Assembly: GCA_963737905.1 (NCBI GenBank)
Contig: CAVTUQ010000002.1
Coordinates: 96,001 to 160,000, forward strand
Reading direction: 5' to 3'
Length of the DNA: 64,000 nucleotides
Source of the DNA: an uncultured delta proteobacterium
GTDB taxonomy: Bacteria > Desulfobacterota > Binatia > UBA9968
Shown here: positions 6,244 to 53,991 of the stretch, piece by piece
How positions within the stretch are numbered: the first letter of the stretch is position 1
Layout of the letters: every line of letters begins with the position of its first letter
Notes under the pieces: generated by a model
The model's input: the letters and a program-made list of their open reading frames with translations, nothing else
Database searches by the model: none
Told to the model about the DNA's origin: nothing
Position numbers and translations under genes: made by a program

Positions 6244-6316
6244 GTGAGGAGTAAGGGATGAAGGGTCAGGCGAGAAAAGCAGGGACGCCCTCACGACTTA
6301 CCCCTGACGCCTTACG
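6244..6316. repeat. Heptamer-periodic inverted repeat element (gtgagga/cctcacg type)
   Basis: Left arm gtgagga-gtaaggg-atgaagg-gtcaggc; right arm cctcacg-acttacc-cctgacg-ccttacg, which contains the stop codon of the receiver gene. Confidence 0.75.
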
Positions 6317-6692
6317 TTTTTGTCTCTCGAAGGACCCTTTCCACTTCCCCGAGAAAGTCCTTCAAGCTGATCGGCTTGGTCTGGTAGCCGTCAAACCCTT
6401 CAGCCAACATCGTTTTTCTATTGTGGGTCATGGCCGACGCGGTAATCGCGATGATAGGTATGCTCTGTGTTTGTGGCTTGGCCCGGAGTTGCTTCAGCGC
6501 GGTAATTCCGTCTATCCCCGGGAGCTGGATGTCCATGAGGATAAGAGCAGGCGATTTGTCCAGCGCGAGCTTTATTCCTTCTTCGGCCGTCTCAGCCTCT
6601 ATGGTCGTATAGCCCTTGACCTGAAGCACGTCTCGAACCAGCTTCCGGTTCTTCTCGTTATCTTCGATGATCAGTACCAGTTCGTTAGGCAT
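6312..6692 (-). CDS. Single-domain response regulator (DivK/CheY-like), copy 1
   Basis: IIEDN, ILMDIQLPGIDG, TKP. Confidence 0.92.
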   Translation of the reverse strand: MPNELVLIIEDNEKNRKLVRDVLQVKGYTTIEAETAEEGIKLALDKSPALILMDIQLPGIDGITALKQLRAKPQTQSIPIIAITASAMTHNRKTMLAEGFDGYQTKPISLKDFLGEVERVLRETKT

Positions 6693-6707
6693 AAAAGTTC
6701 GATGATC

Positions 6708-6800
6708 CTCCCGCAAAGGCGCAAAGACGCCAAGTTTAGAAGAAAAGATGGCTGATAATTCTAATAATAATTCTTCTAACACTTTGCGCCTTTGCGGGAG
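6708..6800. repeat. cgcaaag-type palindromic element with a perfect 19-bp inverted repeat
   Basis: ctcccgcaaaggcgcaaag (6708-6726) and ctttgcgcctttgcgggag (6782-6800) around an AT-rich spacer. Confidence 0.85.
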
Positions 6801-6806
6801 AAATTC

Positions 6807-9800
6807 TTATCTTATCGGAAGCGTGAACGTGAACGTCGATCCCCTTCCCATCTCGCTCTGCACCCAAATTTTGCCTTCGTGCAATTCGACGAATTTTCTG
6901 GTTAGACTCAACCCGAGCCCAGTTCCCTCGCGCTTCTGTGCATAGTTGGTCCCTACCTGGCGGAATTCCTCAAAGATCGCTTCCTGATCTTGCGGCGCGA
7001 TGCCGATGCCCGTGTCGGTGACCGAAATAATCACCGCACTGTCGCCCAGTGTCGCCTCGATCTTAATTCGCCCGCCCTCCGGCGTAAATTTCACCGCGTT
7101 GGACAGCAAGTTGACTAACACCTGCTTCACCTTGCGCTCGTCTCCGGTGAAGTCGCCAAGGCGGTCGTCGATGATACGTTCGAGCTTGATACCATGACGG
7201 CTGGCGCGCTCCCGTATGAGTAACAGCGCGTTCTCGATGGCGTCCGGCATGTAGAACGTCGTTACCTCCAACTCCATGCGTCCCGCCTCGATTTTGGACA
7301 GATCCAAGATGTCGTTGATGAGTGAAAGCAGGTGGCGGCCGGAGGAAAGAATGTCCTCGGTGTACTCAGCTTGCTTTTCATTTAGCTCGCCGAACAGTCT
7401 CTCCCCCAAGACTTCAGAGAAACCGATGATCGCATTGAGCGGCGTGCGCAGCTCATGCGAAACGTTGGCGAGAAATTCAGATTTATGACGGTTCGCCGTC
7501 TCCAGCTCTACACCCTTTGCTTCGATCTCGCGGAATAGCCGCGCATTTTGTATCGCCAATGCCGATTGAGTCGCAAAGGTCTGCAGAAGATTGACGACTT
7601 CCGGCGAAAAGCTGCCTGCTTCGCTTCGCCAGACCGTCAAGGCCCCCATGATTTGCTCCTCGCGGAGTAGCGGCACCGCCAAGGACAGACCGATAGCCGA
7701 GACGCGACAAGCATGGGCCGCATCGCGTAGTACCCGTAATTCCCGTTCCTCTAGAAGGTTCGCGACCTGAACTGGCGCGCGCACGTGTCGCCGCTTGACC
7801 GGTCGCGCCCTTGTCCCGGACGGACCGGGGTCGCCTGAAAGCGCTTGAACTATCTCCTCTTCCATGCGGTAACTGGCCCTGAGATGAAACTCTTGCGCAG
7901 TTTCATCGTACTCGTAGATAACGCCGCCATCGGTTCCGGAGAGTTGAACCGCGTGGCCAACGATGGTGCTAAGCACGGTCTGGAGATCGAGAGTAGAGCT
8001 GACCGCTTGTCCGACCTCCCCCAGCGCTTTCAGTTCTCCGACGGATCGCGCTAACTCGCTTCGTTCGTTGTTGTAGCTCTTGGAACAGGCGAACATTCTC
8101 GATGGCGATCACGGCTTGGTCGGCAAAGGTTTTGAGAAGCGCGATTTGCTTCTCGGTGAACGGTCGGACCTCCGTGCGGCGAATCAAGAATCGCTCCGAT
8201 CGGGACCCCCTCGCGCAGGAAGGCGTGGCTAGGCATCGTCCGAGTCGCCAATTTGTTGCTGATAATGGTCTGGCATCTGGAAACTCGCTTCTGAAGTTCT
8301 GCCGCAGGTCAAGGATGTGAACCGTTTGACGATCCATGACAGCTCGGCCTACCGCAGAACCGCGAGCTAAGGCCGATGAGCCGGTCCGAGTGGAATCGGC
8401 CCATATGCGCAACCGGCCGAAGAATGTCCCCATCAATACGATAGATCGAACCGTCAATGCCTCGCATAATCGCGCTGCGCATTTCCGCCACCGCATCCAG
8501 CACCGGCTGGATGTCGGTCGGCGAGCTAGCGATCACGCCCAGGATTTCACTCGTCGCAGTTTGTTGCTCCAACGCTTCGGTGAGTTGGCGGTTGCGATCC
8601 TCCAATTCCTTGAACAATCGTACATTCTCGATGGCTATCACCGCCTGATCGGCGAAGGTTTCTAGCAGCTTGATCTGCGCCGGTGTGAAGGGGCGTACTT
8701 CGATGCGACGTGCGTTCAATACTCCAATGAATTCTCCGCTGCTGACGAAGCGGAACGACCAATAAGGTGCGCCAGCCGCCGGTGGAACCCACCATTGGGA
8801 AATCGTTCTGCGCGCGGGCGTCTGGAATGTGAAGCGTGCCATGCTCGCGCATCCAGCGATACTGTGGCTCATCAATACTGATCTCGACGCGGCCAATGGG
8901 TATAGGACCAAAATGAGCCCGCGAAACCAACATGTTCCCCTCGTGGAGTCGCAGCACCACGTCATCAATCCCGCAAACCCGTGCGGCGCTCTCGACGATG
9001 GCGTCGAGCACCGGCTGCACGTCCGTGGGCGAGCGGCTGATGATGCCGAGGACCTCGCGGTTGCGGTCTGATGCTCCAGTGCCTCGCGCAACTCCGCGTT
9101 GCGTTCCTGAGTTCTTTGAACAGCCGGACGTTCTCGATAGCGATCACGGCCTGGTCGGCGAAGGTCTTCAGAAGCGCGATCTGCTTTCGGAAAACGGATG
9201 GACCTCGGTTCGGCGGATGAAGAATAGCCCCGACGGGCAGCGCCTTCGCGTAACAAGGGCACGGCCAGCGCGGTGCGAATGCGCTCCTGCTGCACCGCAT
9301 GCCACACTTCCGGAAATTCTTCTTCGCGTTCCGCCAGCATGTCGTGGATGTGCACGGTCTGGCGGTGCACAATCGCTCGTCCGGTGTTGGAACCGCCGCT
9401 GATCCGCCTCGTACTCCCGAGCGGAATGCCAATCCGGGCACGGTGCCGTAGCGCGCAACCTTGCGCATCATGTCGCCGTCGACGCGATAGATCTGTGCGT
9501 CTTGGGCGTCACATAGGCGCGCGGCACTTTCCGCCACAGCATCGAGCACGGGCTGAAGATCGGTGGGCGAGCTGGCAATCACGCGCAGAATCTCGCTCGT
9601 CGCGGTTTGTTGCTCCAGGGCCTCGGTGAGATCGCGGTTGCGGATTTCGGTAGTTCCTAAATAAGCGGGCGTTCTCGATCGCAATGACCGCTTGATCGGC
9701 AAAGGTCTGAAGCAGCGCCACTTGCTTCTGCGAGAATGGGGCGATGGCGGCGTGCCAAACTGTAATTGCGCCGATCGGATCAGCTCCCCCGGAGCATCGG

Positions 9801-12403
9801 CACGGATAACACGCTTCGGAAGCTCGCGATCTCACTGGCCGCATGCTCGGGATCATTCTCCACGTCCGGGACGTGGATGACCGCGCGATCGAAGATTGCT
9901 CGTGCCACGAACAGATGTCGGCCCGGCCGAGTTGGAAAAAGCTGCCGGGATAGCTCCAGGGCTGCTGGTGGATAGTTGTTATCGGCTACCATGTGGATGA
10001 GCTCGCCGTCGAATCGGTATACCGATCCGAAGAGAGCCCACAGAGTTTGACCGAATGTTCGGCGATGGTATCGAACACGGGCTGCAATTCGGTCGGCGCG
10101 CTGCTTATGACCGCGAGGATATCACTTGTCGCTGTCTGCTGTTCCAACGCCTCAGTCAGATCGCCGTTACGGACTTGCAGTTCTTGAAACAGCCGCACGT
10201 TCTCGATCGCGATCACCGCCTGGTCAGCGAAAGTGTGACCAGTGCGATCTGCTTTTCTGCAAAGGGCTCGGACTACACTCCTTCGGATCATGATCCCTCC
10301 GGAGTTGGCCCTCTCGTGAGCAGCGGGACTCCCAAAAGCGTTCTAACGAACCAATTCGGGCTCCCACTTCCCTAAATTAAATCCAGGATCAGTTAGGCAT
10401 CCGGGAAGATGAACTGGCCGTCGCTCAAGAGCGAACGGCCCATAACCGTACCGCGGTCATTAGGGGAGATAGGAGTTCGCTCGAAGAATTCATCTCAATT
10501 CGGGAGTCACGTTGTAAGCAACCGCCAGGCGAAACACGTCGTCATCGACCTATAGATATATCCCTGGTTAGCACCCAAAGGCGTCGCGGCGTTCTCGATC
10601 AGTGTTTCCAGAACGGGATGAAGGTCAAACGTCGAGCGGCTGATGACCTTGAGCACTTCGCTCGTGGCAGTCTGCTGCTCTAACGCCTCGGTGAGGTCGC
10701 GGTTCCGCGCTTCTGAGTTCCTTGAACAGCCGCACATTCTCGATGGCGATCACGGCCTGGTCGGCGAAGGTCTTAACCAATTCGATTTGTCGGTCAGTGA
10801 AAGGCTCGACAACGTCGCGCCAAATTGTGATTGTTCCGATTCCTGCTCCTTCTCGCAATAAAGGCACTGCCAACAACGTTCGCACCCCGGAGTCGGATGA
10901 CGTGGGAATAGTCTGCCGCGCTATAAATTGTGCATCGGCGGCGTGTAGTCGGGCGTCAAGGATGTGGATAGGTTTGCGGTCGAGGAAAGCTCGAGCGCCT
11001 GGAATGTTGGGACTTACTGGGAGGGGGTTGGACTGCAGGACCGCGATCCGTTCGGGACTTTCATTGTGATGAGCGACGACTCGCAAAAACTCTCCATCGA
11101 GTTGCCGGATATGGCCCTGTTTGGCCCCAGAAAGCTTCACAGCGTTGGCAACAAGGGTATCGAGTACTGGTTGGAGCTCAGTCGGTGAGGATGCGATAAC
11201 CCTCAAAACCTCACCGGTCGCCGTCTGTTGCTCCAGCGCTTCAGTCAGGTCGCGGTTCCGTTCCTGTAGTTCTTTGAAGAGCCGCACGTTCTCGATCGCG
11301 ATGACCGCTTGATCGGCAAAGGTTTCAAGCAGCTTTATCTGCTTGTCTGAGAAGGGGCGAACCTCTATCCGACGGATCATGATCGTTCCGATCGGCACAC
11401 TCTCACGCAGTAAAGGCGTGGCAAGCACGGTCCGAAGGCCGATCGTCTTAGCGAGCGACGCATTTGGGAACTCGTCCTCTGGTTCCGCTGCAAAGTCATG
11501 TATGTGAATGGTTTGTCTGTCAATGATGGCTCGACCGGATATCGAGCCACGGTCAATTGAGGTGGGACCTCCACCCAGCGACCCCGGCAGCGATCCATAA
11601 TTAGCCACCCTCTTCAAGGAATCACCATCGATGCGACTAATCAAAGCGTCGTCAGCCTCACACAGCCGCGCAGCACTTTCTGCGACTGCATTTAACACCG
11701 GCTGGATATCCGTCGGCGAGCTGGCGATGACGCCCAAAATTTCACTCGTTGCCGTTTGTTGCTCCAACGCTTCATTGAGTTCTTGAAACAGCCGCACATT
11801 CTCAATGGCGATGACCGCCTGGTCGGCAAAGGTTTCAAGCAAACGGATTTGCTGGTCCGAGAACGGACGAAGCTCCAGGCGACGAAGGTGGATTATCCCA
11901 AGCGGAATTCCATTTCGCAGCAGCGGCACAACTAGCACACTCTTCACGCCTGATGGAATTGCATAGATCTTGGCACCGGGGAACTCATTAATAGCTGCCT
12001 GAACGTCAGGGACATGGATTGTCCGCCGGTCGAGAATGGCTCGGCCGGGCACCGATCCGAAGTCGATGGATACATTTTCCCTTCCGGCCAAAGTTGGGAT
12101 AGAGCCAAAGTGAGAAACCGTTTGGTAGGTCTTACCATCGGTGCGCCGCACTAACACATCGTTGGCATCGCACAACCGCGCCACATTCTCGGCAATGGTG
12201 TCCATGACGGCCTGCAGATTAGCCGGAGCTTTGGCAATCATATGCAGGATGTCGCTAGCCGCAGCGAGTTGTTCCAGCGCCTCGTCGCGCTCCCGCTTTA
12301 GCTCCTCAGCTGCCTGTGGATGCTTGAGCTGAGACTTTTCAGATGAGACACGGGGCGGCTTTGCCCTTGTTTTCTTCGCGCCCTTTTTGGTGGTCGTTGC
12401 CAT
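6807..12403 (-). CDS. Giant cytoplasmic sensor histidine kinase HK1: ~9 tandem GAF domains + HisKA + HATPase (multiple frameshifts in this sequence)
   Basis: Nine TFA(D/T)Q(A/S)xxAIxNxRLF GAF-terminal motifs across consecutive ORF fragments; [11 protein letters not shown]-box; N, G1, F and G2 boxes; no transmembrane segment seen; ~1860 codons if joined. Confidence 0.85.
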
Positions 12404-12581
12404 AAAGCAGATCGAGACGGGACTGAACTGACTTTTACGCCAGGTGGTTGCAGGCGTCAAGGAAAGCTATGAAAGGGTTGCAACGCAACCGCTATGGGTT
12501 CGCTTTAGCGAGTCTACCGAATTTTTCGACGGGAAGACTACCTCACGAATCGCGCAACGTCCCAATTTCGGTCAAAAAAAG

Positions 12582-12610
12582 TTGACACTAAATGCCTCGG
12601 AGGATAAAAC
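12582..12610 (+). promoter_or_regulatory. Putative sigma70 promoter for the SEC-C gene
   Basis: TTGACA-17 bp-TAAAAC. Confidence 0.4.
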
Positions 12611-12752
12611 TCTCACAGATAACGGCCGGATTTTGACGAAAAAATAAAAAACACCGCTGAAGTTTGGGAGGTTCTGCCGCGCCGGTCGGTGCGAGATGTG
12701 CCAGAAGGATCAAATCCTTCTTACGAGGCGATGCAGCGGGGGAGAGACGCTC

Positions 12753-14117
12753 ATGAAACCACAGAGGAACGATCCCTGCCCTTGCGGGAGCGGCAAGAAA
12801 TACAAAAAGTGCTGCCTACCCAAGGAAAGAGACCAACAAGCCGGCGATTCCCCCTGGAGCCATGCCGGCAAAGTGCACCGCATTCAGCACGCCGACGATT
12901 ATCCGGTGGAGGCCTGCTATCTCAATGCTGATTGGAAAGGGCAGGGATTGGCCCGCATCGTGGTTACTCGGAGCCAAGAGAACGGGAAAATCATGGTAGC
13001 AGCGTTCCTGGTCGATATTTTCTGCCTGGGAGTCAAAAACGCCTTTTGTAATGAGGGCCTCGGCAGAAGGCAGATTGAGGCTCAACTTCTGCCTGGATAC
13101 TACCAGAATGAGGAACCCACGAGAGTCGGGATCAACTATGTCAAGGAGATCATCTACGGCGCGGTAGATTACGCCAGAAGTCTAGGATTTGAACCTCATC
13201 CTGATTTTGAACTTTCCCGCCAAGTGCTTGGATCTGAAGAGATTGGCAGGACCCGCAACCTGACCTTTGGCGGGCCGGAGGGAAAGCCGTTTTACGTGGC
13301 CGGCCCCGATGATGATACCGCAACGGTCCTGCAAAAGCTTCGCAAGAGACTAGGGGAAGACGGATTTAACTTTATTGCGCCGGAAGAGGACTGGGAGGAT
13401 ATAAAGGAAGACGAAGACCAGCAGCCCGGACTGGTGAGTCGGGTATTGGGTCAAGCGACGGAGCTTCTGGACGCTGACCTCAAGAGATACAAGCACCTTA
13501 GACAAATTGGGATGCGCTTAATGGGTGCGATCACAAGGTCGCTACCGAGGGAATTGATCCTCCAGGCTGCAAGAGATTTGCGGCTGTTGGATAAAAAGGG
13601 GAGGATCGTCTGCGATACGGAAGATGAAACGTCATTCATCATGGATCGCGCTATCCACGACATACCCTGGCCGGAACAGAGATACATAGAAATCTATCAC
13701 CAAGACGAGGCCTCAAAGCTATCTCTAGATCAGCAGGCGTATCTAGAGGCAAACATACAGCCGGTTTTTTCCTTGTACGAAGTTTTGAAGGTATCCCGCG
13801 GTCGCGGTGTATGGCTAGTGAATCTATTTTCGCCGGAAGAATTTTTTCTCATGGATACTGGATTAGGAACGACAGCCGAAAAAGGATGCCTTTTGGCCAG
13901 CAGGGTAATCCGCCTCAACGGAATCTGTTTCACCTCCGGGGTGACTATGCCTTTTGGCCCCGAACACAAAAGGCGCCTCACGCACCACTTTACTTCCCTG
14001 GCAGATGACAAAGAAGGAGCCGGAAGCTGGGAGAGGCTGATGCAGCGTCATGCTCCATATTTCTTTATTGAGTTTAAGAAGACCGGTGTTGCCGTCGAGT
14101 TTACTACGGTCACTTAA
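12753..14117 (+). CDS. SEC-C motif (zinc-binding) protein of unknown function
   Basis: RNDPCPCGSGKKYKKCC at the N-terminus; two regions separated by an acidic linker. Confidence 0.85.
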   Translation: MKPQRNDPCPCGSGKKYKKCCLPKERDQQAGDSPWSHAGKVHRIQHADDYPVEACYLNADWKGQGLARIVVTRSQENGKIMVAAFLVDIFCLGVKNAFCNEGLGRRQIEAQLLPGYYQNEEPTRVGINYVKEIIYGAVDYARSLGFEPHPDFELSRQVLGSEEIGRTRNLTFGGPEGKPFYVAGPDDDTATVLQKLRKRLGEDGFNFIAPEEDWEDIKEDEDQQPGLVSRVLGQATELLDADLKRYKHLRQIGMRLMGAITRSLPRELILQAARDLRLLDKKGRIVCDTEDETSFIMDRAIHDIPWPEQRYIEIYHQDEASKLSLDQQAYLEANIQPVFSLYEVLKVSRGRGVWLVNLFSPEEFFLMDTGLGTTAEKGCLLASRVIRLNGICFTSGVTMPFGPEHKRRLTHHFTSLADDKEGAGSWERLMQRHAPYFFIEFKKTGVAVEFTTVT

Positions 14118-14743
14118 GCCACGTGCCGTACGGACCAGGATTTTCTTTTTGCTCTTTCGGGCTTACTGTGAAGAAGCATTCACCCGAGGGGGGTCCAATC
14201 GCTCAAGCCGTTAGAACTGAAAGCACGGGCTGACAACCTGAGCGTTTTTAAAAGCCCACGATCTCTGCGAGCGGTTGGGGCTCTTCCGATATTGATGATA
14301 AAAGGAAGTCCTGGTTCAGCGTTTACGTTCTTTACCTGAACGAATTCCTTGTTTCTCTGGGGACCCCGGCGCCAACCTCGCAAAGACTCCAGTCAACCTC
14401 GTCTTTATTTTGGCTTTCCGAAACTTGCCATGTTTTGCGTGAGATGATTCTTCTCCGACTTCGGATCTATTTCCCGCCAACTCGCCAAGATTTGAAGGCC
14501 ATGCCTTTTGTCGAGCGAATCTTCGTTCCGCACACGCGCTGCGTTACTTAATTCCCTTGCAGTAAAACAGTAAAAACTATAGGTCTTCAGGCCTTCCTGT
14601 GAACCAGGACTCGGAGATTGCGCCGCGGATCCGCCAAAGGATGGATCAGCGACAGTTTTTAAGGCTGAGGCGCGGAGGACCCAGAGTAAACGAGTTCTTG
14701 GTAAAAAAATTTTTCTCCTCGCAAACTCTGTCTATGCTTGAAA

Positions 14744-14932
14744 GTTTTCGCCGCTTGCGTAAATTTGCCGATATATGAAACATCTCGGATTCGGATATTT
14801 CTCCCGCCATGCCGCGAAGAACGCCAAGTTTTGATAACTATTATTTCTCTTTCTTTGCAGCCTTTGCGTGTTTTCGGGAAAATATTCCGCTTCTTTGGGT
14901 TGCGGCGCAGCCGCGCTGTGCCTCTGCGGTGA
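14744..14932. repeat. Composite cgccaag/ctttgcg-type repeat cluster
   Basis: 14744-14828 resembles 16443-16528; ctttgcagcctttgcg arm; gcggc-N3-gccgc hairpin at ~14900. Confidence 0.65.
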
Positions 14933-15083
14933 ACACTTCTTCACAGAAAAACCGGAATAACCAAAACTATAAACCGCTACAAAAAGCAGCGAGTGTGAAG
15001 AGGAGAGGCCTAAGTATCGCATTGAGCCAACGGGAAGACGCCCTCGCTCAGCCTCCAAAGAGAGATGTTCGAACGAACTTGTC

Positions 15084-16216
15084 TTAGCTTTTCAGTCGGA
15101 GAATATTGTGGGCGGTGACCGGCCGGTGAAATCCTTTCAGCGTTAGTTCCCCTACAGGTTCCACTTCCACCAGCTCTTCCACAGTCCCCAGCAGCCGTTG
15201 GGAAACCAAGATCTGACTTGGTTTGGCCTCGCCGCAAAGGCGTGAGGCCAGATTAGTGACGGTGCCGATGGCACCGTAATCCCACCGACCTTCAAATCCG
15301 ATTCCGCCGATGGTCGCGTAGCCCTGCGCGATACCGACACCGAAATCGAGCTCGTAGCCTAGCTTACGCCATTTGCCGTCAGCTCTACCACACTCTCCCG
15401 CATCGCAAGCGCCATGCGGATCGCTCGCTCCGCCGGGTTCGGAACCGACACTGGATCATTAAAAAAAATCATCATGCCGTCGCCAGTGAATCGTTCCAAA
15501 GTCCCTTCGTGTTCCAGAATCAGCTTGCCCATTGCAGCATGGTACTCGCGGAGAACTCCCATTACTTCCTCGGGCTCGGAGGTCTCGGCAAAGGCGGTAA
15601 AGCCGCGCAGGTCGAGAAAAACCACCGTGATCTCTCGCCGGTGGGTCTTGAGCGGATCCTCGGTGCCTCCGGAGACGATCAGCTCTGCAAGTTGAGGCGA
15701 GAAAAAACGTTTTAGCCGACTGAGTCTGTCAAGCTGAGCCACTTGCTCCTTTACACGTTCTTCCAGACGCTTGTTCCACTCCTCCAGCTCGTTGCGGAGC
15801 CGAACCTCCTGGTCGCGCAAACGCTTTTTCTCCAGGCACGCGCCGATGCGCGCCCGCAAGAGGACCGGGTCGAATGGCTTGGGCAGATAATCCTCGGCCC
15901 CGAGCTCGATACAACGGACCACGCTGCCGATCTCGTCTAGAGCGGACAGTACAATGACCGGAATGTCGCGTAGTGCATGATCCGACTTCATCTGTTCCAG
16001 AACCTGGTAACCGTTCATCTCCGGCATCATGACATCGAGCAGGACAAGGTCGTACGGATCTGCCTTGATCGTCTCTAACCCAAGTCGCCCGTTTTCCGCA
16101 ACGGCGGTTTTATGCCCGTCCGCCTCCAAAAGCGCGCACAGCATATCCCGGTTCATCTCGATGTCGTCGACGACAAGAACGGAGCGGGATTGAATGTTGG
16201 CATTTTTCTCAGTCAC
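15084..16216 (-). CDS. Response regulator receiver fused to a class III nucleotide cyclase (copy 2), one-base frameshift at ~15372
   Basis: REC + cyclase. Restoring one A in GCAAATGG gives KWRKLGY as in copy 1 and reads through to TAA at 15084-15086. Confidence 0.9.
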
Positions 16217-16261
16217 GATGTGTGCTTCTTGCAGTTTCGCCCATCTGGCTAGGAGACTTTC

Positions 16262-16740
16262 TTAACCGCAAAGAACGCAAAGTTCGCATAGGAAAAATTC
16301 TTTTGCATTTCTTTGCAATTGTCCGACGACCGTTCAACATTCGCCGAAACACCTTCTCACCACGAAGATCAGGAAGACCACGAAGGGCGGGTTTGAAAAG
16401 CACCTCTATTTTTTTGCGTCCTTTGCACTTTATGTTTAAGCGTTTTCGCAGCTTGCGCAAATTTTCCAGTGCCCCGTGGCTATCCAAAACTGGGATTTGC
16501 TCGTGCCAAGACGCGAAGCACGCCAAGTGGCGGGCCAGGCCCGTCATCCCGAGCGGAGACGAGGGATCTGAGAAAGATTTCTCCCTTCGGTCGAAATGAC
16601 AATACGTTTTTCTTTGCGGCCTTTGCGCGAGATATTCCCAGTTCTTCTTTTGTGTTCTTTGCGCCCTTTGCGGTTAATTCTCCGGTTCCGAATCGACTTT
16701 GGTTGCGGCTTTTGCCGCGCTAGGTTCTTTGCGGTTAAAT
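16262..16740. repeat. Cluster of 8-9-nt-periodic cgcaaag/ctttgcg repeats with a nested REP-like element (16542-16600)
   Basis: aaccgcaaagaacgcaaagttcgcatag, caccacgaagatcaggaagaccacgaag, ctttgcggcctttgcgcgaga, ctttgcgccctttgcggttaa; cgtcatcccgag...gggatct...agatttc...gaaatgac. Confidence 0.75.
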
Positions 16741-16754
16741 TCCTCTCCGTCCTT

Positions 16755-16787
16755 AATCTAAAATCGGCAATCTAAAATCCAAAATCA
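16755..16787. repeat. Heptamer tandem repeat (aatc-NNN)x5 overlapping a stop codon
   Basis: aatctaa-aatcggc-aatctaa-aatccaa-aatca. Confidence 0.75.
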
Positions 16788-17150
16788 TAGGAACTCCTGG
16801 ATTTTGGCCAGCAGCTCGGCTGGATCAAACGGCTTCGTTACATAGGCATCGCAGCCGGCCTCGGCCGCCTTAATGTCATCGCCGCTGAGCGCATAGGAGG
16901 TCACTGCGATGATGGGGATATGGCGGAGCGCGGCATTGGCTTTGATCCGCCGCGTCACCTCGTATCCGTCAATGCCGGGAAGCTGGATATCCATAAGGAT
17001 CAGATCCGGCACCTGCGCCTCCGCCGACGTCAACCCTTCCTCACCCGTGACCGCCTCAATCAATTCATAACCAACGCTTGTGAGAAGGTCGCGCAAGAGG
17101 CGCCGATTTTCTTCGTGGTCCTCGATAACCAATATCCGCTTTCCAGCCAT
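16785..17150 (-). CDS. Single-domain response regulator (DivK/CheY-like), copy 2
   Basis: VIEDH, ILMDIQLPGIDG, VTSYALSGD, TKPF. Confidence 0.92.
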   Translation of the reverse strand: MAGKRILVIEDHEENRRLLRDLLTSVGYELIEAVTGEEGLTSAEAQVPDLILMDIQLPGIDGYEVTRRIKANAALRHIPIIAVTSYALSGDDIKAAEAGCDAYVTKPFDPAELLAKIQEFL

Positions 17151-17174
17151 AGCAAATCTCAACTTTAAAGACTT

Positions 17175-17382
17175 TTAACCGCAAAGATCGCAAAGTTCGC
17201 ATAGAATTTTTTTGCGTTCTATGCGTTCTTTGTGGTTAGCCTCTTGGTTTGCTCCTCTTCCCTTGCGCCTTTGCGCGAGATTGATTCTTTCTTTTTTATC
17301 CCGCCAAGACGCCAAGCTCGCAAAGAAAATCTCCTTAACTAATTTTCCTAACTTGGCGTACTTTGCGCCTTTGCGCGAGAAA
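17175..17382. repeat. Two adjacent cgcaaag/cgccaag-type palindromic elements
   Basis: aaccgcaaagatcgcaaagttcgcatag...tttgcgttctatgcgttctttgtggtt; cccgccaagacgccaagctcgcaaag...cttggcgtactttgcgcctttgcgcgag. Confidence 0.75.
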
Positions 17383-20300
17383 ACTCTTCTCCGTACGGTA
17401 GCGTGAAAGTAAACTTACTCCCTTTCCCCACTTCGCTTTCCACCCAGATCTTTCCTCCGTGTAATTCGACGATTCTTTTTGCGATGGCGAGCCCGAGCCC
17501 CGTGCCCCCCTTCTTCTGCGTGATGGAGCCCTCGGCCTGTCGGAACTCGTCGAAGATTTTTTCGCGATCCGTCTCCGGGATCCCTGGCCCGGTATCCGAC
17601 ACCGACACCAGCAAATTCCCGTTCTCCGCTGCCACGTCGATCCGAACCTCCCCCGAGTCCGTGAACTTGATCGCGTTGCCAACGAGATTCAACAACACTT
17701 GCGCAATTCGCCGCTCGTCCCCTAGCGCGGCAGGCAAGTCGGCAGGAACTGTGACCTTCAGCGGAAGATTCTTCTCCGCGGCCAGAGATTGCGTGCCGGA
17801 GACGACGGCCTGAATCACGTCTTTAATCGAATAAGGGTTGATCGCCAAAGTTAGTTGGCCGGCCTCGATCTTGGAGAAATCGAGCACGTCGTTGATCAGG
17901 CCGAGCAGATGACGGCCGCTTTTGTCGATTCGTCCGTGGACGTCTCTAACCTTCTCGGGCAGCTCGCCGTACACGTTCATCAGGAGCATCCGCGTATAGC
18001 CCAGGACGGCATTCATCGGCGTGCGCAGCTCATGGCTCATACTCGCCAAAAACTGCGATTTGTACTTGCTCGCCAGCTCCAGTTGATGTCCCTTTTCCTC
18101 GATCTCTCGAAAGAGCCGTGCATTTTGTATCGCCAAGGCCGATTGAGTCGCGAAGGTCTGAAGAAGTGGACGACTTCCGGCGAAAAGCTGCCGGCCTGCT
18201 TCCGCCACACCGTCAACGCCCCCATGATGCGCCCTTCTCGGAGAAGCGGAACCGCCAGAACAGATCGATATCCGAGCCGAGCCGCGATAGGCCGGAGTCG
18301 CGTAGCCCCGAGTTCCTGCTCCTCTAGCAGATTAACGACTTGAACTGGAGCCCGAGTGATTGTCGCCCGCCCGGTCGCGCCCTCTCCCTGTCGTATCGGC
18401 GCTGCCCGAATGGCTTCGACTAGTTCTTCTTCCATACGGTGGCTAGCCCTGAGACGAAATTCCTGCCCACCTTCGTCGTACTCGTAGATAACTCCACTGT
18501 TGGTACCTGAAAGCTGGACCGCATGGCCAACGATGGTGCTGAGCACGGTCTGGAGATCGAGAGTAGAGCTGACCGCCTGACCGACCTCGCCTAACGCTCT
18601 AAGCTCGCCGACCGACTGTGCCAGCTCGCGGGTCCGCGCCTCCAGTTCCTGGAACAGCCGCACGTTCTCGATTGCGATCACCGCCTGGTCGGCGAAGGTT
18701 TCTGAGCAGTTTGATCTGCTTGTCGGTGAAGGGACGGACCTCCATGCGGCGAATATGAATCGCCCCGATGGGTAGTTCCTTCGCGCAGCAATGGCGTGGC
18801 AAGATCGTCCGAACGCCCACGTGCTGGCAAAGCTGCAGACTCCGGAAAGTCATCTCTCTGCCGCGCAAGTCATCGGAATGTGAATTGTTCGTCGGTCAAT
18901 TATGGCTCGCGCCGTTGGTAGAGCCACGGTCGATTGGAGAATTCCCGCAGGTCCCACCCGGCAAGGCCCGTAATTAGCCACGATCTGAAGCATGTCACCA
19001 TCAACGCGATAAATCACCGCGTCAGTTGCATCGCACAGCCGCGCCGCATTCTCGGCGACCACATCCAGCACCGGCTGAATGTCAGTCGGCGAGCTGGCGA
19101 TGACGCGGAGGATTTCGCTCGTAGCCGTCTGCTGCTCCAACGCTTCAGTGAGATCGCGATTGCGGACTTGCAATTCTTGGAAAAGCCGCACGTTTTCGAT
19201 CGCGATCACGGCCTGGTCGGCGAAGGTCTTGAGTAGCGCGATCTGCTTGTCGGTGAAAGGGTTGACTTCCGCGCGACGAATCAGAATGGCCCCGATGGCG
19301 ACCCCCTCACGGAGCAATGGGGTCGCCAGTCTCGTCTGCAGGCCGAATTGTTTCTGATAATCCATGCTCACCGTGAATTCGTCCTGCGACGCCGCTTCCA
19401 AGTCATGGACATGGATTGTCTCTCGATCAAGCACTGCTCGGGCAGGCACCGAGCCGCGGTCCATAGGTCCTGCTTCTCCGATTGGTCCTGTAGGTAGCGT
19501 CCCATATTTAGCCACTCGCCGAAGGTTGCTACCATCTACACGGAAAATAACTGCGAGGTCCCCACCGCAAACACGTGCGGCACTCTCGGCCACTACATTC
19601 AGCACCGGCTGGATATCTGTCGGCGAACTGGCGATGACACCCAAGATTTCACTCGTAGCCGTTTGCTGCTCCAACGACTCCTTGAGTTCTCGGAACAGCC
19701 GCACGTTCTCGATGGCGATCACCGCTTGATCGGCGAAGGTTTCGAGCAGTTTGATCTGCGCCGGGGTGAAGGGGCGCACCTCGGTGCGACGCGCGGTCAA
19801 TACTCCAATGAGTTCCCCCTGCTGACGAAGGGGAGCGGCCAAGAAGGTGCGGAAGTTGCCGGCGGAACCCAACATCGGGAAATCGTTCTGCGCGCGGACG
19901 TCGGGAATGTGGAGCGCGCCGTGCTCGCGCATCCAGCCATACTGTGGCTCATCAATACTGATCTCGGGGCGGTCAATAGGTATGGGACCAAAATGAGCCC
20001 GCGGAACCATGGCGTTCCCCTCGCGGAGTCGCAGCACCACGTCATCAATCCCACAAACCCGCGCGGCGCTCTCGACGATGGCATCCAGCACCGGCTGCAC
20101 ATCCGTTGGCGAGCGGCTGATGATGCCGAGCACCTCAGCCGTTGCAGTCTGATGCTCCAGGGCTTCCCGCAATTCAGCGTTCCGCTCTTGGATATCCTTA
20201 AACAGCCGGACGTTCTCGATGGCGATGACCGCTTGGTCGGCGAAGGTTTTGAGAAGCGCGATCTGTTTGTCGGTGAACGGCCGGACTTCTTTTCGATGGA

Positions 20301-23300
20301 TTACAATCGCGCCGATCAAATCATTCTCTTTTAGCAAGGGAACGGCTAAGACACTCCGCATCCCCTGGTCACGATAAGGCCCGGTGCGATAAGCGGTCAG
20401 TTCTGGATCGGCAAGAACATCCGGTACATGGACCAACCGCCGTTCCAATGCGACCCGGCGTACCGCGCTCTCTCGCCCTGGACGAAAAGGCGTACCCAGC
20501 GCATACGCCTCCATCGCAGGTGCCACATTGTATAATGCAACGCCTCGAAGGGTCTCGCCATCAAATCTAAACATCGCACCATTTTGCGCCTCGCAGAGGC
20601 GGACTGCATTGTCGAGGATCGTCTGAAAGACGGGCTGCAAATCAGTTGGCGAACTGGCGATCACGCCAAGAATTTCGCTTGTCGCCGTTTGCTGTTCCAA
20701 CGCTCTCGGTACTGGTTCCTTCAGCTCTTGGAACAATCGCACGTTTTCGATGGCGATGACGGCTTGGTCGGCGAAAGTTTCGAGCAGTTTGATCTGCACC
20801 GGGGTAAAGGGGCGCACTTCAGTGCGACGCGTAAACAGCGATCCGATAAGTTCCCCTTGCTGGCGAAGGGGGACGGACAAGAAGGTGCGCCAGCCGCTGC
20901 GGGAATCAACCGTCGGGAAGTGGAAGTCTTTCCGTTCGCGGGCGTCAGGAATATGGAGTGTGCCGTGCTCGCGTAACCAGCCGTACAATGGTGCATCCAC
21001 ATCGGTCTCGACGCGGAGAACGGGTATTGGGCCAAAATGAGCCCGCGCAACCATTGCGTTCCCCTCGCGGAGTCGCAGCACCACGTCATCAATCCCACAA
21101 ACCCGGGCAGCGCTTTCAACAATCGCATCGAGCACCGGCTGGACATCGGTGGGTGACCGGCTGATGATGCCGAGCACTTCGGATGTGGCTGTTTGATGCT
21201 CCAGGGCCTCTCGCAATTCAGCGTTGCGCGCTTCGAGTTCCTTGAAGCAGCCGCACATTCTCGATAGCGATCACGGCTTGGTCGGCGAAGGTTGTGACAA
21301 GCTCGATCTGTCTCTCGGTAAATGGCCTGACTAGCATCGGACCAGATCGAGATCGGCCGATGCGATTCGCCTCGCGAAGCAGCGGAACGACTAGCAGGGT
21401 GCGCGCTCCGAACGTGCTGGAGTCGGCCTTAGACTCCGGAATCTCAGTTCGATGTCCGCAATATAGATCGGCTTGCGCTCCAGGAACGCCTGACCCGACG
21501 ACGTATCACGCCCGGGCCGCACTGACGCTTCGACTGCATAGCTGATCACGCCTTTGGACGCCGACGTCTGAAATAGGCAACAACTTGGAGAAACTCCCCA
21601 TCGAACTGGCGAATATGAGCCTTGCTTCGCGCCGGCAGAGCCTCACCGCATTTTCTACGAACCGTATCGAGCACCGGTTGAAGTATCAGTCGGCGAACTC
21701 GCAATGACTCTTAAGCACTTCGCTCGTCGCTGTCTGCTGCTCTAGAGCTTCCGTAAGATCGCGGTTGCGGACTTGCAATTCTTGGAAAAGCCGCACGTTT
21801 TCGATCGCGATCACGGCCTGATCGGCGAACGTCGTAACTAGCTCAATTTGCTTCTCTGTGAAAGGCTCGAACTACAGTCCTTCGAATCAAGATTACGCCA
21901 ATGAGGGTGCCCTCTCTGAGCATCGGGACTCCGAGAGTCGTCCGAGTGCCTCCCAGAGTGTGAGCTTCCGCAAGTTGATACTCAGGATCCGCGACGATGT
22001 CGTGAATATGAATGACACGGTGTTCAAGGGCGACCCGCGCCACGGTGGTTCCTCGCCCCGGTCGAATCGGGTTTTGCTCGAGGAAATCCTTGAATTCAGG
22101 CGGAACATTGTAAGCGACAGCCCGCCGCAGCACTTCCCCATCGACTCGCAAAATAAACCCGGAATTCGCACCGCACAATCTTGTTGCATTCTCGATGAGT
22201 GTTTCCAGCACCGGCTGCAAGGTCGAAAGTTGAGCGGCTGATGACTTTCAAGCACTTCGCTGGTCGCGGTCTGCTGCTCTAGCGCTTCGCTCAGGTCACG
22301 ATTTCGTGATTGGAGTTCCTGAAACAACCGGACGTTCTCAATGGCGATGACGGCTTGATCGGCAAAGGTTTCAAGCAGCTTTATCTGCTTGTCTGAGAAG
22401 GGGCGAACCTCTATCCGACGGATCATGATCGTTCCGATCGGCACACTCTCACGCAGTAAAGGCGTGGCAAGCACGGTCCGAAGGCCGATCGTCTTAGCGA
22501 GCGACGCATTTGGGAACTCGTCCTCTGGTTCCGCTGCAAAGTCATGTATGTGAATGGTTTGTCTGTCAATGATGGCTCGACCGGATATCGAGCCACGGTC
22601 AATTGAGGCGGGACCCCCACCCAGCGACCCCGGCAGCGATCCATAATTAGCCACCCTCTTCAAGGAATCACCATCGATGCGACTAATCAAAGCGTCGTCA
22701 GCCTCACACAACCGCGCAGCACTTTCTGCGACCGCATTTAACACCGGCTGGATATCCGTCGGCGAGCTGGCAATGACGCCCAAGATTTCGCTCGTCGCCG
22801 TTTGCTGTTCCAACGCCTCCTTGAGCTCTTGAAACAGGCGGACGTTCTCGATGGCAATCACCGCTTGATCGGCGAAGGTTTCGAGTAATTTGATCTGCGC
22901 CGGGGTGAAGGGGCGCACCTCGATGCGACGCGCGCCTAGTCCTCCAATGAGTTCCCCCTGCTGACGAAGGGGCACTACTAATAAGGTGCGGTAGTTGCTG
23001 AAGGGTGCCAACATTGGGAAATCATTCTGCGCGCGGACATCGGGAATGTGGAGCGAGCCATGCTCGCGCATCCAGTGATACCGTGGTTCATCAATACTCA
23101 TCTCGATTTGGGCAACGGGTATGGGACCAAAATGAGCCCGCGCAATCATAGTGTTCCGCTCGTGGAGTCGCAGCACCACGTCATCGATCCCACAAACCCG
23201 GGCGGCGCTCTCGACGATGGCGTTAAGCACCGGCTGCACGTCCGTCGGCGAGCGGCTGATGATGCCGAGCACCTCGGCAGTCGCCGTCTGATGCTCCAGG

Positions 23301-25533
23301 GCCTCGCGCAATTCTGCGTTGCGCTCCTGGAGTTCTTTGAACAACCGCACGTTTTCTATGGCGATCACGGCCTGGTCAGCGAAGGTTTCAAGGAGTTTGA
23401 TCTGTTTGTCTGTGAACGGCCGCACCTCGTTCCGACGGATGGTAATTGCCCCGATAGGAGTACCTTCACGCATAAGGGGAACCGCCAGCCCGGTCCGAAT
23501 ACCCAGACTCTTTAAGCTATGCCAGACATCCGCATAGTCCGCTTCGCGCTCTGCCAACATGTCATGGACGTGGACCGGCTGCTGGTTGAGTATGGCGCGG
23601 CCGCTCAACGAACCACGCCGAATTGGCCGTGTCTCGCCGACGGCGAGCACCGGTGAGACGACCCCGTAGTTCGCCACTTTCCGCGCCATGTCACCTTCGA
23701 CGCGCCAGATTTGAGCATCGACGGAGCCACAACTCGAGCAGCGTTTTCAGCAACAGCAGCCAACACCGGCTGAATATCCGTCGGAGAGCTGGCGATGACA
23801 CGAAGTATCTCACTCGTCGCGGTCTGCTGTTCGAGCGCCTCGGTAAGATCGCGGTTGCGAACCTGTAGTTCGTTCAGCAGTCGGGTATTCTCCATCGCGA
23901 TCACGGCCTGATCGGCAAAGGTAGTTACCAAATCGATCTGCTTGTCGGTAAAGGGCCGTGCTTCCGTTCGACTGAGCGTGATGACGCCGAGCAGGTCATG
24001 TCCCCTAAGCAGTGGCACACCCAGCGCTGCCCGGTATGGTTGCACTTGCCACGCCTGATAGGTGTACTCCGGATCCGACAAAATATCCGGTATGTGAATG
24101 GTCTGTCGTTCAAGCGCAGCTCTCGCAGTGACGCTGTAACGTCCGGGCGTGAGCGGGTTGCGCTCGACAAATTCTCGCAGTTCCGCAGAAACGTTGTAGG
24201 TGACCGCTAGCCGCAATACTCCGTCTTCGAGCCGCAGAATGAACGCCTGCTCCGCCGCGCACAGTCTCGCCGCGTTCTCAACCAGTGTTTCAAGGACCGG
24301 CTGCAGGTCAAAGGCCGATTGACTGATGACTTTGAGCACTTCACTGGTCGCCGTCTGTTGCTCCAACGCTTCGGTGAGATCGCGGTTGCGAACTTGTAGT
24401 TCGTTGAACAAGCGCACGTTTTCGATGGCAATGACCGCCTGATCAGCAAAGGTCTGAAGTAGAGCGACTTGCTTGTCAGAAAAGGGACGAACCTCTAATC
24501 GGCGAATAATAATCGCCCCGAGGGGAATTCCCTCGCGCAGTAACGGGGTGGCAAGCACGGTACGATAACCAAAGCGGCGTGCCAAAGCGATGCCGACTGG
24601 GAATTCATCTTCCGACTCTGCCGCGAGATCATGAATGTGGATCGTTTGCCTGTCGATGACGGAACGAGCAAGTACCGAGCCACGCTGGAGCGGCATTTTA
24701 TCAGCCTCGGTAAGGCCAGGGATATGTCCGTACTGAGCGACCAAGGGAAGGACATCGCCGTCAATGCGCCGGATAAGAGCGTCGCTTGCACCGCATAATC
24801 GAGCTGCATTTTCCGCCACAGTATCCAGCACCTGCTGAATGTCAGTCGGTGAACTAGCAATAACACCGAGAATTTCGCTCGTCGCCGTTTGTTGTTCCAA
24901 TGATTCAGTGAGCTCCTGAAACAGCCGAACATTCTCAATGGCGATGACAGCCTGGTCGGCGAAGGTCTTCAGAAGTCGAATTTGGCCGTCTGTGAACGGC
25001 TTAACCTCGAGGCGCCGGAGCCCTATCAACCCGATCGCTTGCCCCTTCCAGAGGAGAGGCGTGTACACAAGGGTGCGGAGCCCGATTGGCTGTACCCGGG
25101 CGCGGGTTGGCGCAAACATCGGATCTTCTTCAGCCAGAATGTCGTGGATATGCACGGTCTCACCGGACGTAAGAACATGCCGGTTCAGTGGTTCATCGGC
25201 GATCGGGAGCGCGACAATCGTAATCGGGATTGGACCGACATGGGCCATCAGTCGGAGCATGTTACCGTCGACCAGGCGCACTGAGGCATCCTCCGCGCTA
25301 CATAGACGCGCGGTGCTCTCGACGATCGCGTCGAGAACCGATTGAAGTCTGTCGGCGAGCTCGCGATCATCCGCAGGATGTCGCTAGCCGCAGCGAGTTG
25401 TTCCAGCGCTTCGTCGCGCTCGCGCTTTAACTCCTCAGTTGCCTGTGGATACTTGAGACTGAGACTTTTTCGGCAGGGCACGGGGTTGCTTTGTCGTTGA
25501 TTTTTTCGAGCCTCTTTTGGTGGTCGTTGCCAT
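17348..25533 (-). CDS. Giant cytoplasmic sensor histidine kinase HK2: ~14 tandem GAF domains + HisKA + HATPase (multiple frameshifts in this sequence)
   Basis: Fourteen GAF-terminal motifs at ~500-550 bp spacing; ATG 25533 gives MATTTKRG (HK1 starts MATTTKKG); [11 protein letters not shown]-box and G-boxes; ~2700 codons if joined. Confidence 0.85.
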
Positions 25534-53400: not shown

Positions 53401-53991
53401 CTCCAGCCGGAGCGGTCGCGCGTATCCGGGAGAGAAGATATCGACAATACCGCCGCGAACGCTAAAGTCGCCTCGCTCCTCTACTAACGGGACATTTTGG
53501 AAACCCCATTGCACCAAATGTTGCAGCAGACTTTCGCGCGCCAGCTCTTGCCCGGCGACGAGGTAGAGATAGGACTGCTTGAACTTTTCCTTTGGAATGA
53601 CTTTCTGCAGCAACGCGGGGGGAGTCGCTATGAGGATGGGTGCGTGTTCCTCCACAAGCTTGTAAAGTCCTTCGAGACGGGCCGCCACATTGTCCGGATG
53701 CGGCGACAGTTTCTCGAAAGGAAGGACTTCCCAGGATGGAAAAAGATGGAGTCGCTTGCGAAACGGCGGCAGGGAGCGTTCCTCGCCCAGGAAAAATCCC
53801 AGATCGTCGTAGAGATTCTCCGCATCGCTGGCTGTGGGCGCGACGATGAGAATCGGCCGGCGGCTTTTCTCGGCGACCAGCGAGAGAACATACGCCTTCG
53901 CGCCCCCTTGGATTCCCTGGATACGTTTCACTCCCGTCCAAGTACCCTGGACAAAGGATTCGAGTTTGGCGCGAGGGTCAAAATCGTTCAT
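50441..53991 (-). CDS. mfd: Transcription-repair coupling factor (frameshifts at ~52610-52710)
   Basis: RGGIVDIF, VVHLDHGIG, GDVGYGKT, DEEH, QLRGRVGR, TRCF domain across two ORFs. Confidence 0.95.

Follow-up and report, generated by a model that had tools for sequence, protein, structure and literature searches.

A GAF core shared almost identically by two neighbouring multi-GAF histidine kinases of an uncultured Binatia bacterium probably reflects recent ectopic recombination

The window analysed here is a 64,000-nucleotide stretch of contig CAVTUQ010000002.1 (positions 96,001 to 160,000) from assembly GCA_963737905.1, the genome of an uncultured delta proteobacterium of the Binatia (UBA9968). 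It contains two kinase operons on the minus strand and, between them, a gene on the opposite strand. The features that matter for our argument are as follows.

5115..6230, minus strand: response regulator-class III nucleotide cyclase fusion (Response_reg and Guanylate_cyc), intact
6312..6782, minus strand: single-domain response regulator downstream of HK1
6807..12403, minus strand: HK1, a cytoplasmic kinase with 9 tandem GAF units followed by HisKA and HATPase_c (profile matches)
11185..11306, minus strand: linker downstream of copy 1 in gene sense, compared with HK2 22231-22352
11307..11725, minus strand: block copy 1, the globular core of GAF unit 2 of HK1 (sequence comparison)
11726..11845, minus strand: linker upstream of copy 1 in gene sense, compared with HK2 22772-22891
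12648..14117, plus strand: SEC-C-motif protein gene between the two kinase operons
15084..16261, minus strand: second response regulator-cyclase, split into two frames near 15400 in the assembly
16785..17174, minus strand: single-domain response regulator downstream of HK2
17348..25533, minus strand: HK2, a paralogous kinase with 14 tandem GAF units followed by HisKA and HATPase_c (profile matches)
22353..22771, minus strand: block copy 2, the core of GAF unit 6 of HK2, identical to copy 1 at 415 of 419 bases

The N-termini of HK2 and HK1 are 85% identical, and HisKA and HATPase_c were found in both genes. The response regulator-cyclase at 5115..6230 is likely to be the output of HK1. The second cyclase has an intact counterpart of 377 amino acids on L132, a syntenic contig from another metagenome-assembled genome. 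Both kinases are read in pieces, with nine frame switches among 14 protein-HMM matches in HK1 and seven among 19 in HK2, compared with 0-3 in six other multi-GAF loci. An earlier note on this DNA, made from the sequence alone, mentioned neither these frame switches nor that the genes lie on the minus strand. The kinases are presumably functional; if the frame breaks were real, both genes would be pseudogenes and the event described below would have had no sensory consequence.

When copies 1 and 2 were aligned, they matched over 419 bp with no gaps and four mismatches (11563/22609, 11570/22616, 11665/22711 and 11687/22733). All four are transitions (T/C, T/C, G/A and T/C for HK1/HK2 on the forward strand); read in gene sense, three are A in HK1 and G in HK2, and the fourth is C/T. 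Three are synonymous and one changes Thr/Ala among the 139 codons of the tract. Thus, the block of about 420 bp that the earlier note had described, with four differences that are all transitions, was recovered exactly, and its placement in GAF 2 of HK1 and GAF 6 of HK2 holds. All four mismatches fall within the gene-5' 163 nt of the block and the 3' 256 nt are identical (chance 0.023). This clustering may reflect two nested events, which is too weak to claim.

The near-identity is sharply bounded within diverged flanks. The first mismatches beyond the block lie at 11306 and 11726. In a 619-column alignment with 46 mismatch columns, 25 of these fall in the left 100 columns and 17 in the right 100, which leaves four for the central 419, and the hypergeometric probability that four or fewer would fall in the central part is 4.6e-18. 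The gene-5' border of identity lies between GVI and ASSPTD and the 3' border between FADQA and VIA, so the near-identity does break down inside the conserved linkers, as had been claimed. The linkers flanking the block are 75-83% identical between HK1 and HK2. In the upstream linker 23 of 120 bases are different, and 19 of these fall in codons that still specify the same amino acid; 38 of 40 residues of its protein are shared. The downstream linker has 44 mismatches in 122 positions, which arise partly from an extra HK2 base near 22250. The neighbouring units do belong to different subtypes, with core identities of 49% (HK1 U1 and HK2 U5) and 50% (HK1 U3 and HK2 U7). Selection is not the cause of the near-identity, because three of the four differences within the block are synonymous, while the linker is alike in protein but not in its bases. 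The identity of the block reaches synonymous sites.

No other pair of units in this genome looks like this one. When the whole 6.7-Mb assembly was searched with the block by blastn, 44 HSPs were obtained: the block itself (100%), its partner (99.05%) and then matches of about 72% and below. We also compared the 94 GAF units of the genome (8 loci) in 3,999 pairs, for which core identity had a mean of 51.0% and a 99th percentile of 79.8%. HK1 U2 and HK2 U6 were the top outlier, with 99.0% core and 83.3% linker identity. The runner-up pair (92.0% core, 96.5% linker) shows the pattern of an ordinary duplicate. The pair described here reverses the usual pattern in that its cores are more alike than its linkers. 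Shorter near-identical tracts were seen in other loci.

The block is a GAF domain (Pfam PF01590 / PF13185 / PF13492) by both profile and fold. With 150.1 and 143.7 bits, the ORF pieces that hold the two copies lie far above the PF01590 cut-off of 22.4. An AlphaFold model of the unit (pLDDT 85.4) predicts a helix at residues 2-37, a GAF core and a second helix at residues 162-214, and its top Foldseek matches are GAF-containing structures (E down to 1e-11), with 11-25% identity to solved GAFs among the matches listed. The tract corresponds to residues A36-A175 of the modelled unit, so that in the model both of its ends sit in the connecting helices. Because both ends lie in linker-helix DNA, the recipient would have retained its reading frame and its helical connectors.

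A pair of similar design was found on L132. There, 7856-8328 and 19305-19777 match over 473 bp with one mismatch and join unit 3 of an intact 2,720-aa kinase (14 GAF, HisKA and HATPase_c in one frame) with unit 5 of the next kinase. The units that adjoin this tract are 50% and 56% alike, and its unit type differs from that of the window block. Its 3' border, between FADQA and V, is 3 nt from the border in the window. Judged by its sequence, the L132 tract is a second, independent case of the same design. The unit order of L132 is not collinear with that of HK1 or HK2. Thus, the GAF order of these kinases is not invariant; nor is the identity of the pair in the window part of a longer duplication.

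Outside the genome, in search sets from which records very near the genome of the window may be absent, the best match was 84.0% in nucleotides over 669 nt, on the 3.4-kb contig L091 (87% in amino acids, with yet another unit order). In the genomes of 40 relatives the best matches were 70-75%, on short contigs; genomes of the same genus gave only 70-72%, again on short contigs, and a scan of metagenome contigs gave at most 75% in amino acids. The two paralogous copies (99%) are therefore closer to each other than to any relative found. A state preceding the copying was not found in the 40 genomes, the metagenome contigs, L091 or L132, and donor and recipient could not be told apart.

We conclude that a recent, non-reciprocal ectopic recombination probably copied one GAF core between HK1 and HK2 at different positions in their arrays. 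The lone outlier pair, the identity at synonymous sites and the recurrence in L132 favour the reading that the earlier note had suggested, a recent conversion or recombination whose ends lie within the linkers, over the others considered. We propose the following sequence of events. The two operons would have arisen by tandem duplication; in each, the gene for a giant soluble histidine kinase precedes those for a response regulator and a response-regulator-cyclase. The GAF sensors of each kinase (9 and 14) form a string in which long conserved helices connect one unit to the next. By gene conversion, or by a template switch with the same effect, the core of one unit would then have been written over a unit of the other kinase. 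Both ends of the tract would have fallen in conserved linker-helix DNA, and the four transitions (about 1% divergence) would have accumulated after the copying.

Two parts of the original proposal need to be qualified. The 'cassette-wise exchange' of sensor domains stands as a one-way copy, which the 419-bp tract represents; a two-way exchange was not borne out, as only one-way copying is seen. Similarly, the borders do lie in the linkers, and we infer that recombination made use of linker homology; that the linkers served as 'homology arms' goes a step further, because exact linker matches today are short (median 12.5 nt; at least 20 nt in 18 of 126 linker pairs). Such runs are meagre for classical RecA-dependent exchange.

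The alternative that survives best is that the overwritten unit was already of the donor's subtype, in which case the event would be ordinary concerted evolution that homogenised two units and left the sensor unchanged. We consider this possible, though less likely than not. A short linker of one class (LFQEL-N/K-EALEQQ, lacking RNRDLT) stands before both copies, with the near-identical linker protein described above, and HK2 has other units of the broad group to which the block belongs (U2, U12 and U13, 62-68% identical to it). Additionally, more internal homology would have eased recombination beyond what linker microhomology alone allows. However, the earlier sequence left no trace, and the 83% linker identity exceeds the mean of the family (71%, SD 9.4) by only about 1.3 SD. 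Nor is linker class tightly tied to subtype: long-linker units of L132 are as similar to the block in protein (72%) as short-linker ones.

The second alternative is an artefact of assembly or polishing, in which only one place truly has the core and the other acquired it through overwriting of the consensus or a wrong join. The quality of the data gives some reason to ask this question. The genome is a metagenome-assembled genome (87% complete, 6.7% contamination), both kinases have unusually many frame switches, and some of these switches are absent from the short-read contigs. The short-read contigs also disagree with the window by indels: single bases are missing at 22217, 22250/22252 and 21248, 12 bases are missing at 20704 and there is one more base behind 9056. 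Because of the frame switches and these disagreements, we regard the local consensus quality as poor. None of the 12 indel places listed between reads and window lies in a homopolymer run; thus, the simple signature of long-read error is absent there.

The short-read contigs themselves give a mixed picture of the context of each copy. Those considered here come from runs X1-X4; runs X5-X20 contributed small shares of the sampled words. In run X1 the block forms a contig of its own (22366-22777, depth 5.67), which does not place it in either context; yet a true two-copy repeat should also come out of a de Bruijn graph as a separate contig of somewhat greater depth. Contig X3 record 23 (22611-22864) runs from inside the block into 93 nt of HK2-specific flank with seven differences in all, over a stretch in which 15 positions distinguish the HK1 flank from the HK2 flank, and so links the block to HK2-type flank. 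On the HK1 side, X2 record 9 (11279-11702) extends no more than 28 nt beyond the block, against a criterion of 31 nt. Among the pieces listed, none covers an entire copy together with unique flanks at its two ends.

Other arguments against an artefact come from the copies. Polishing cannot bring a paralogue of about 65-70% identity to 99% over exactly one in-frame core while the native flanks are kept. The two copies differ at four sites and are thus not one sequence used twice. Moreover, the same design recurs in L132, a contig with a different assembly naming style. We therefore regard an artefact as improbable and infer that the event was real in the cell and not only in the assembly.

Two further observations on the short-read contigs were considered and set aside. 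An X4 contig that leaves the window at 11308, directly at the edge of the block, could be taken for an allele that predates the conversion, but its loose letters encode a linker variant that is common in other GAF proteins; the conserved linkers attract contigs of many organisms, as seen in depth spikes of 20-30 compared with 1-5. Alleles at the mismatch sites are mixed in the contigs (11563 T>C in X2; 22616 C>T in X1 and X3). We do not read these as ongoing exchange, since a de Bruijn graph collapses both copies and the contigs may be chimeric paths.

A third alternative, that unequal crossing-over or slipped duplication recently inserted an extra unit, is very improbable. HK2 does have five units more than HK1, and arrays of this kind gain and lose units, as the different unit orders of HK1, HK2 and L132 indicate. 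An added unit, however, would bring at least one full period including its linker. GAF units span about 505-587 bp, with a repeat period of about 510-570 bp, and the near-identity stops inside both linkers. As the 419-bp tract is shorter than one period, it represents the replacement of a core and not an added unit. Last, the preponderance of A in HK1 against G in HK2 might recall the template and variable repeat of a diversity-generating retroelement, but we dismissed this candidate as having almost no chance of being right, because the only reverse-transcriptase (RVT_1) match of the assembly lies on another contig (C25:346127-346801) and not beside the repeat pair, the fourth difference is C/T, so that the differences, all transitions, are not confined to template adenines, and the tract is mid-gene and several times longer than typical variable repeats (roughly 100-150 bp).

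Conversion between the two kinases, our preferred reading, also leads to a broader and more tentative idea, which we hold to be rather doubtful at present. The conserved linker helices might act as built-in DNA recombination sites, which would make the GAF repertoire of this soil bacterium (94 units in 8 loci) a pool of exchangeable cassettes. Short conversion tracts would keep the linkers alike, and longer ones would now and then carry entire GAF cores to other array positions and to paralogous kinases. The two full-core events, with 3' breakpoints 3 nt apart, and the shorter tracts are compatible with such a pool, without showing selection for exchangeability. The locus itself also yields a prediction that population genetics can test: unit content should vary among strains. 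Additionally, the preserved helical 'wiring' of the recipient, with breakpoints in the connecting helix, suggests where natural or engineered GAF swaps may be tolerated.

How does this locus compare with known systems? Antigenic variation can proceed by gene conversion of cassettes from silent copies, as in pilE/pilS of Neisseria and vlsE of Borrelia. The locus described here resembles these systems in that a variable cassette with conserved flanks would have been copied as a segment and in one direction, and the resemblance is one of outcome only. Unlike them, it has no silent donor array; both partners are parts of full-length genes, and nothing pointed to a dedicated initiation element or to frequent copying. 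At the level of protein architecture, the units resemble PDE2A, PDE6 and cyanobacterial CyaB2 (3ibj, 1mc0, 8ugs, 1ykd) in their GAF fold and in a long helix that runs from the last GAF helix into the next domain. Those proteins have two GAFs, whereas HK1 has 9, HK2 has 14 and the kinase on L132 carries 14 in a single intact frame.

A full-text search for gene conversion together with GAF domain and histidine kinase, within a limited literature collection, found no paper. The process is nevertheless not new in kind. Ectopic gene conversion and concerted evolution are known between bacterial paralogues, for instance in rRNA operons and in the repeat-rich antigen families of Mycobacterium tuberculosis (PMC6053082, PMC8022953, PMC12046097, PMC13061034). 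With such cases our locus shares a sharply bounded, non-reciprocal near-identity between diverged paralogues that are closer to each other than to their orthologues. It differs from them in that the tract is one structural domain of a tandem-domain sensor protein, and in that it links different array positions and can thus change domain order or content, not merely homogenise. What the locus adds, together with L132, are examples at nucleotide resolution of a single GAF core replaced in frame. In signalling-rich genomes, kinases that arose by recent duplication differ in the sensor domains at their N-termini, and rearrangement of individual domains was inferred, with the mechanism left open (Alm, Huang and Arkin 2006; PMC1630713). 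As described there, that work was statistical and used the domain strings of 207 genomes, whereas the locus here represents one event, at nucleotide resolution and with both breakpoints. If the idea of a cassette pool is true, it would provide a mechanism for the domain shuffling that accompanies kinase expansion.

The two paralogous histidine kinases HK1 and HK2 share one GAF core that is nearly identical at the DNA level. In each, Pfam matches show a run of GAF domains with HisKA and HATPase_c behind it, and the GAF units were counted with a nucleotide profile of the repeat:

~12403 down to 6807, minus strand: HK1, 9 GAF units
~25533 down to 17348, minus strand: HK2, 14 GAF units

Two genes lie downstream of each kinase, first one for a single-domain response regulator and then one for a class III nucleotide cyclase with a fused response regulator. 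As the gene order is the same behind HK1 and HK2, the two operons are duplicates of one another. Both kinases look like soluble, cytoplasmic sensors because the translated N-terminus lacks a hydrophobic stretch.

When 11207-11825 was aligned without gaps to 22253-22871, 46 of the 619 columns were mismatched: 25 in the first 100, 4 in the central 419 and 17 in the last 100. An even spread would place four or fewer of the 46 in the centre with P = 4.6e-18. The four differences between 11307-11725 and 22353-22771 (at 11563, 11570, 11665 and 11687) are all transitions, and the nearest differences beyond the block borders are at 11306 and 11726. By the unit profile, the block forms the core of unit 2 in HK1 and of unit 6 in HK2. 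These results agree with an earlier note, which had reported a near-identical pair with four transitions at these GAF positions. When 6001-26500 was compared with itself, the block pair aligned across 635 nt at 92.4% identity; the remaining long pairs were at 64-80%, and no other pair among the best 60 of 146 exceeded 86%. Against the entire 6.7-Mb assembly, the block found itself, its partner at 99.05%, and then matches of at most about 72% (44 HSPs). The four mismatches are confined to the gene-5' 163 nt of the block, leaving the gene-3' 256 nt identical (chance 0.023); this clustering may reflect two nested events or patchy repair.

The assembly contains 94 linker-bearing GAF units, mostly in eight giant loci of 5-14 units each, on contigs C1, C2, C3, C10 and C26. 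Among the 3,999 unit pairs that shared enough comparable columns, the mean identity of the core was 51.0% (SD 8.7, 99th percentile 79.8%). The block pair (core 99.0%, linker 83.3%) reverses the family norm, as its core is more alike than its linker. The second-ranked pair, with a core of 92.0% and a linker of 96.5%, resembles a common recent duplicate. The same values (core 92%, linker 96.5%) hold for the final GAF units of two adjoining multi-GAF kinases, C26:58569-59144 and C26:66663-67236, whose C-terminal part seems to have been duplicated recently in a more ordinary way. The units flanking the block copies belong to different subtypes, as had been claimed: HK1 unit 1 and HK2 unit 5 are 49% identical, and HK1 unit 3 and HK2 unit 7 are 50% identical. 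By clustering, the unit order is '. C M.. L A B K' in HK1 and '. C. L A C N J A. A. B K' in HK2. One conserved subtype, 'A', recurs 19 times across the loci of this genome, at 78-89% identity.

HK1 unit 2 was modelled in AlphaFold together with its two linkers (20 aligned units; pLDDT 85.4). The model consists of a helix (residues 2-37), the GAF core and a second helix of 53 residues (162-214) that continues into the following unit. Its best Foldseek matches are GAF-containing structures (E down to 1e-11). The block covers residues 36-175, starting at the final turn of the incoming helix (GVI|ASSPTD) and ending one third into the outgoing helix (FADQA|VIA). The identity does end inside the conserved linkers, as the earlier note had observed.

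Of the four differences within the block, three are silent and the fourth is a Thr-to-Ala change. Over the 40 codons directly upstream, the proteins agree at 38 of 40 residues, whereas the DNA differs at 23 of 120 bases, 19 of which preserve the residue. Because this linker combines a near-identical protein with many silent differences, selection on the protein is ruled out as the cause of the tract identity. A recent common origin of the DNA can account for it. As the 419-bp tract is shorter than the repeat period and excludes both linkers, the core was replaced within an existing unit and no unit was added. The outcome is a one-way copy with both ends in linker DNA, which may have arisen when the linkers seeded homologous recombination or template switching. 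Exact runs common to HK1 and HK2 linkers have a median length of 12.5 nt, and 18 of 126 linker pairs have a run of 20 nt or more, two of these entries overlapping the block itself. RecA-dependent exchange needs about 20-30 bp in Escherichia coli; against this figure, the present linker homology is at the low end of the requirement.

We found a second case when the same unit profile was run on 165 fetched loci, which gave 1,138 near-full units; within-locus pairs numbered 5,362 and came from 154 loci. The highest-ranking pair (core 99.8%, linker 91.2%) lies on L132, a contig that is syntenic with the window and comes from a MAG titled 'uncultured Syntrophobacteraceae'. Its gene order is kinase, response regulator, response regulator-cyclase (intact) and second kinase; the first kinase is intact, with 2,720 aa, 14 GAF domains, HisKA and HATPase_c. 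Positions 7856-8328 and 19305-19777 of L132 share 473 bp with one mismatch, linking unit 3 of the first kinase with unit 5 of the second, and the adjoining units are 50% and 56% alike. The copied unit is of another subtype than the window block (65% to HK1 unit 3), and the event is therefore separate from that in the window. The 3' border (FADQA|V) is 3 nt away from the window's 3' border, and the 5' border lies farther upstream than the window's, at a stretch of 12 residues. Shorter tracts of 97-100% identity occur within otherwise 70-83% unit pairs in several loci, for example in L161 (362 columns) and L135 (231 columns). In the source genome, C3:48714-48189 and C26:64649-65171 share 122 columns at 100% in an otherwise 80% unit pair; this is possibly a short conversion tract between distant loci on different contigs. 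The multi-GAF region of L161, a Burkholderiales MAG contig, also contains repeated segments in swapped order (X-Y ... Y'-X'), 7808-8403 with 12068-12663 and 6550-7343 with 13016-13809, at 92% and 83%.

It may be that the replaced unit already belonged to the subtype of its donor, in which case the event homogenized two units and did not swap a sensor. A shared subtype would supply more homology, and the same short linker class precedes both block copies. The pre-conversion state, which bears on this reading, was not found in the genomes of 40 relatives, in L132 or in L091, a 3.4-kb MAG contig titled Syntrophobacter. No relative approaches the identity between the two block copies, which speaks for gene conversion; the best match, at 84.0% nt, is in L091. 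Matches reached 70-75% in the 40 relatives' genomes, a tally that includes two flagged unpublished (G006 and G012), and at 75% aa in metagenome contigs.

The reading frames of both kinase genes are broken in the assembly: the 14 protein-profile hits of HK1 include 9 frame switches, and the 19 hits of HK2 include 7. Six other multi-GAF loci of the genome have 0, 0, 1, 3, 3 and 3. Two further genes of the window are split:

15084-16261, minus strand: response regulator-cyclase that follows HK2, broken near 15400 so that the Guanylate_cyc halves fall in different frames
50441-54018, minus strand: mfd (transcription-repair coupling factor), in two overlapping frames, split near 52606-52621

The paralogous cyclase gene (5115-6230) and the L132 counterpart are both intact. 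We attribute most of the breaks to errors in the consensus or to very recent changes, the stretch being difficult and rich in repeats; some may represent real decay. Short-read contigs from public metagenome runs (X1-X4) that cover a kinase frame switch are often without it, and their indel sites coincide with the mapped frame changes: an extra G behind 9056 in X1 (8.3 of 14.9 depth), one base fewer at 21248 in X2 and at 22217 in X3 and X4, one base fewer at 22250 and 22252 in part of the depth of X3, and 12 bases fewer at 20704 in three runs. There are no homopolymer runs at these sites. The 12 extra bases of the window (~20694-20710) encode an odd 'PVPR' insertion within a 16-residue stretch of the linker that leads into HK2 unit 10. 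In both kinases, the block itself stays open and in frame.

The source MAG is 87% complete, with 6.7% contamination and 46 contigs, and the identity of the block could in principle be a product of assembly or polishing. Against this, a paralogue of roughly 65-70% identity cannot be polished into a clean, in-frame 99% copy, there are four differences between the copies, and the same design is present in L132, a different assembly. The best public runs hold at most 0.37 of the sampled words and are low-depth soil metagenomes of one study, available as short-read contigs. X3 record 23 (22611-22864, 7 differences overall) extends from inside the block to 93 nt into the HK2 flank, where HK1 and HK2 differ at 15 sites, and therefore supports the block-HK2 junction. 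X2 record 9 (11279-11702, 4 differences) reaches only 28 nt into the HK1 flank, short of the 31-nt threshold. X1 record 7 (22366-22777) is practically the block alone, at a depth of 5.67 compared with roughly 3-5 for neighbouring single-copy pieces; this is as expected of a true two-copy repeat in a k-mer graph, and proves no context. As none of the pieces listed covers a whole block copy, junction support is partial. A diversity-generating retroelement was excluded, the sole reverse-transcriptase match of the assembly being on another contig.

The earlier note had proposed recent gene conversion or recombination bounded in the linkers. This interpretation is supported, and we consider it likely that the block is a real gene-conversion tract; either kinase may have been the donor, proof from reads is partial, and the genes are frame-broken in the assembly.

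Bacterial paralogues are well known to undergo ectopic gene conversion (PMC6053082, PMC8022953, PMC12046097, PMC13061034). Domain shuffling following kinase duplication has been established statistically, in work that leaves its mechanism open (PMC1630713). A full-text search of the available literature found no paper on gene conversion in GAF-domain histidine kinases, and broader searches gave nothing closer. The block is therefore a clear, sharply delimited instance of a known process, one that in this setting had been inferred and not seen.
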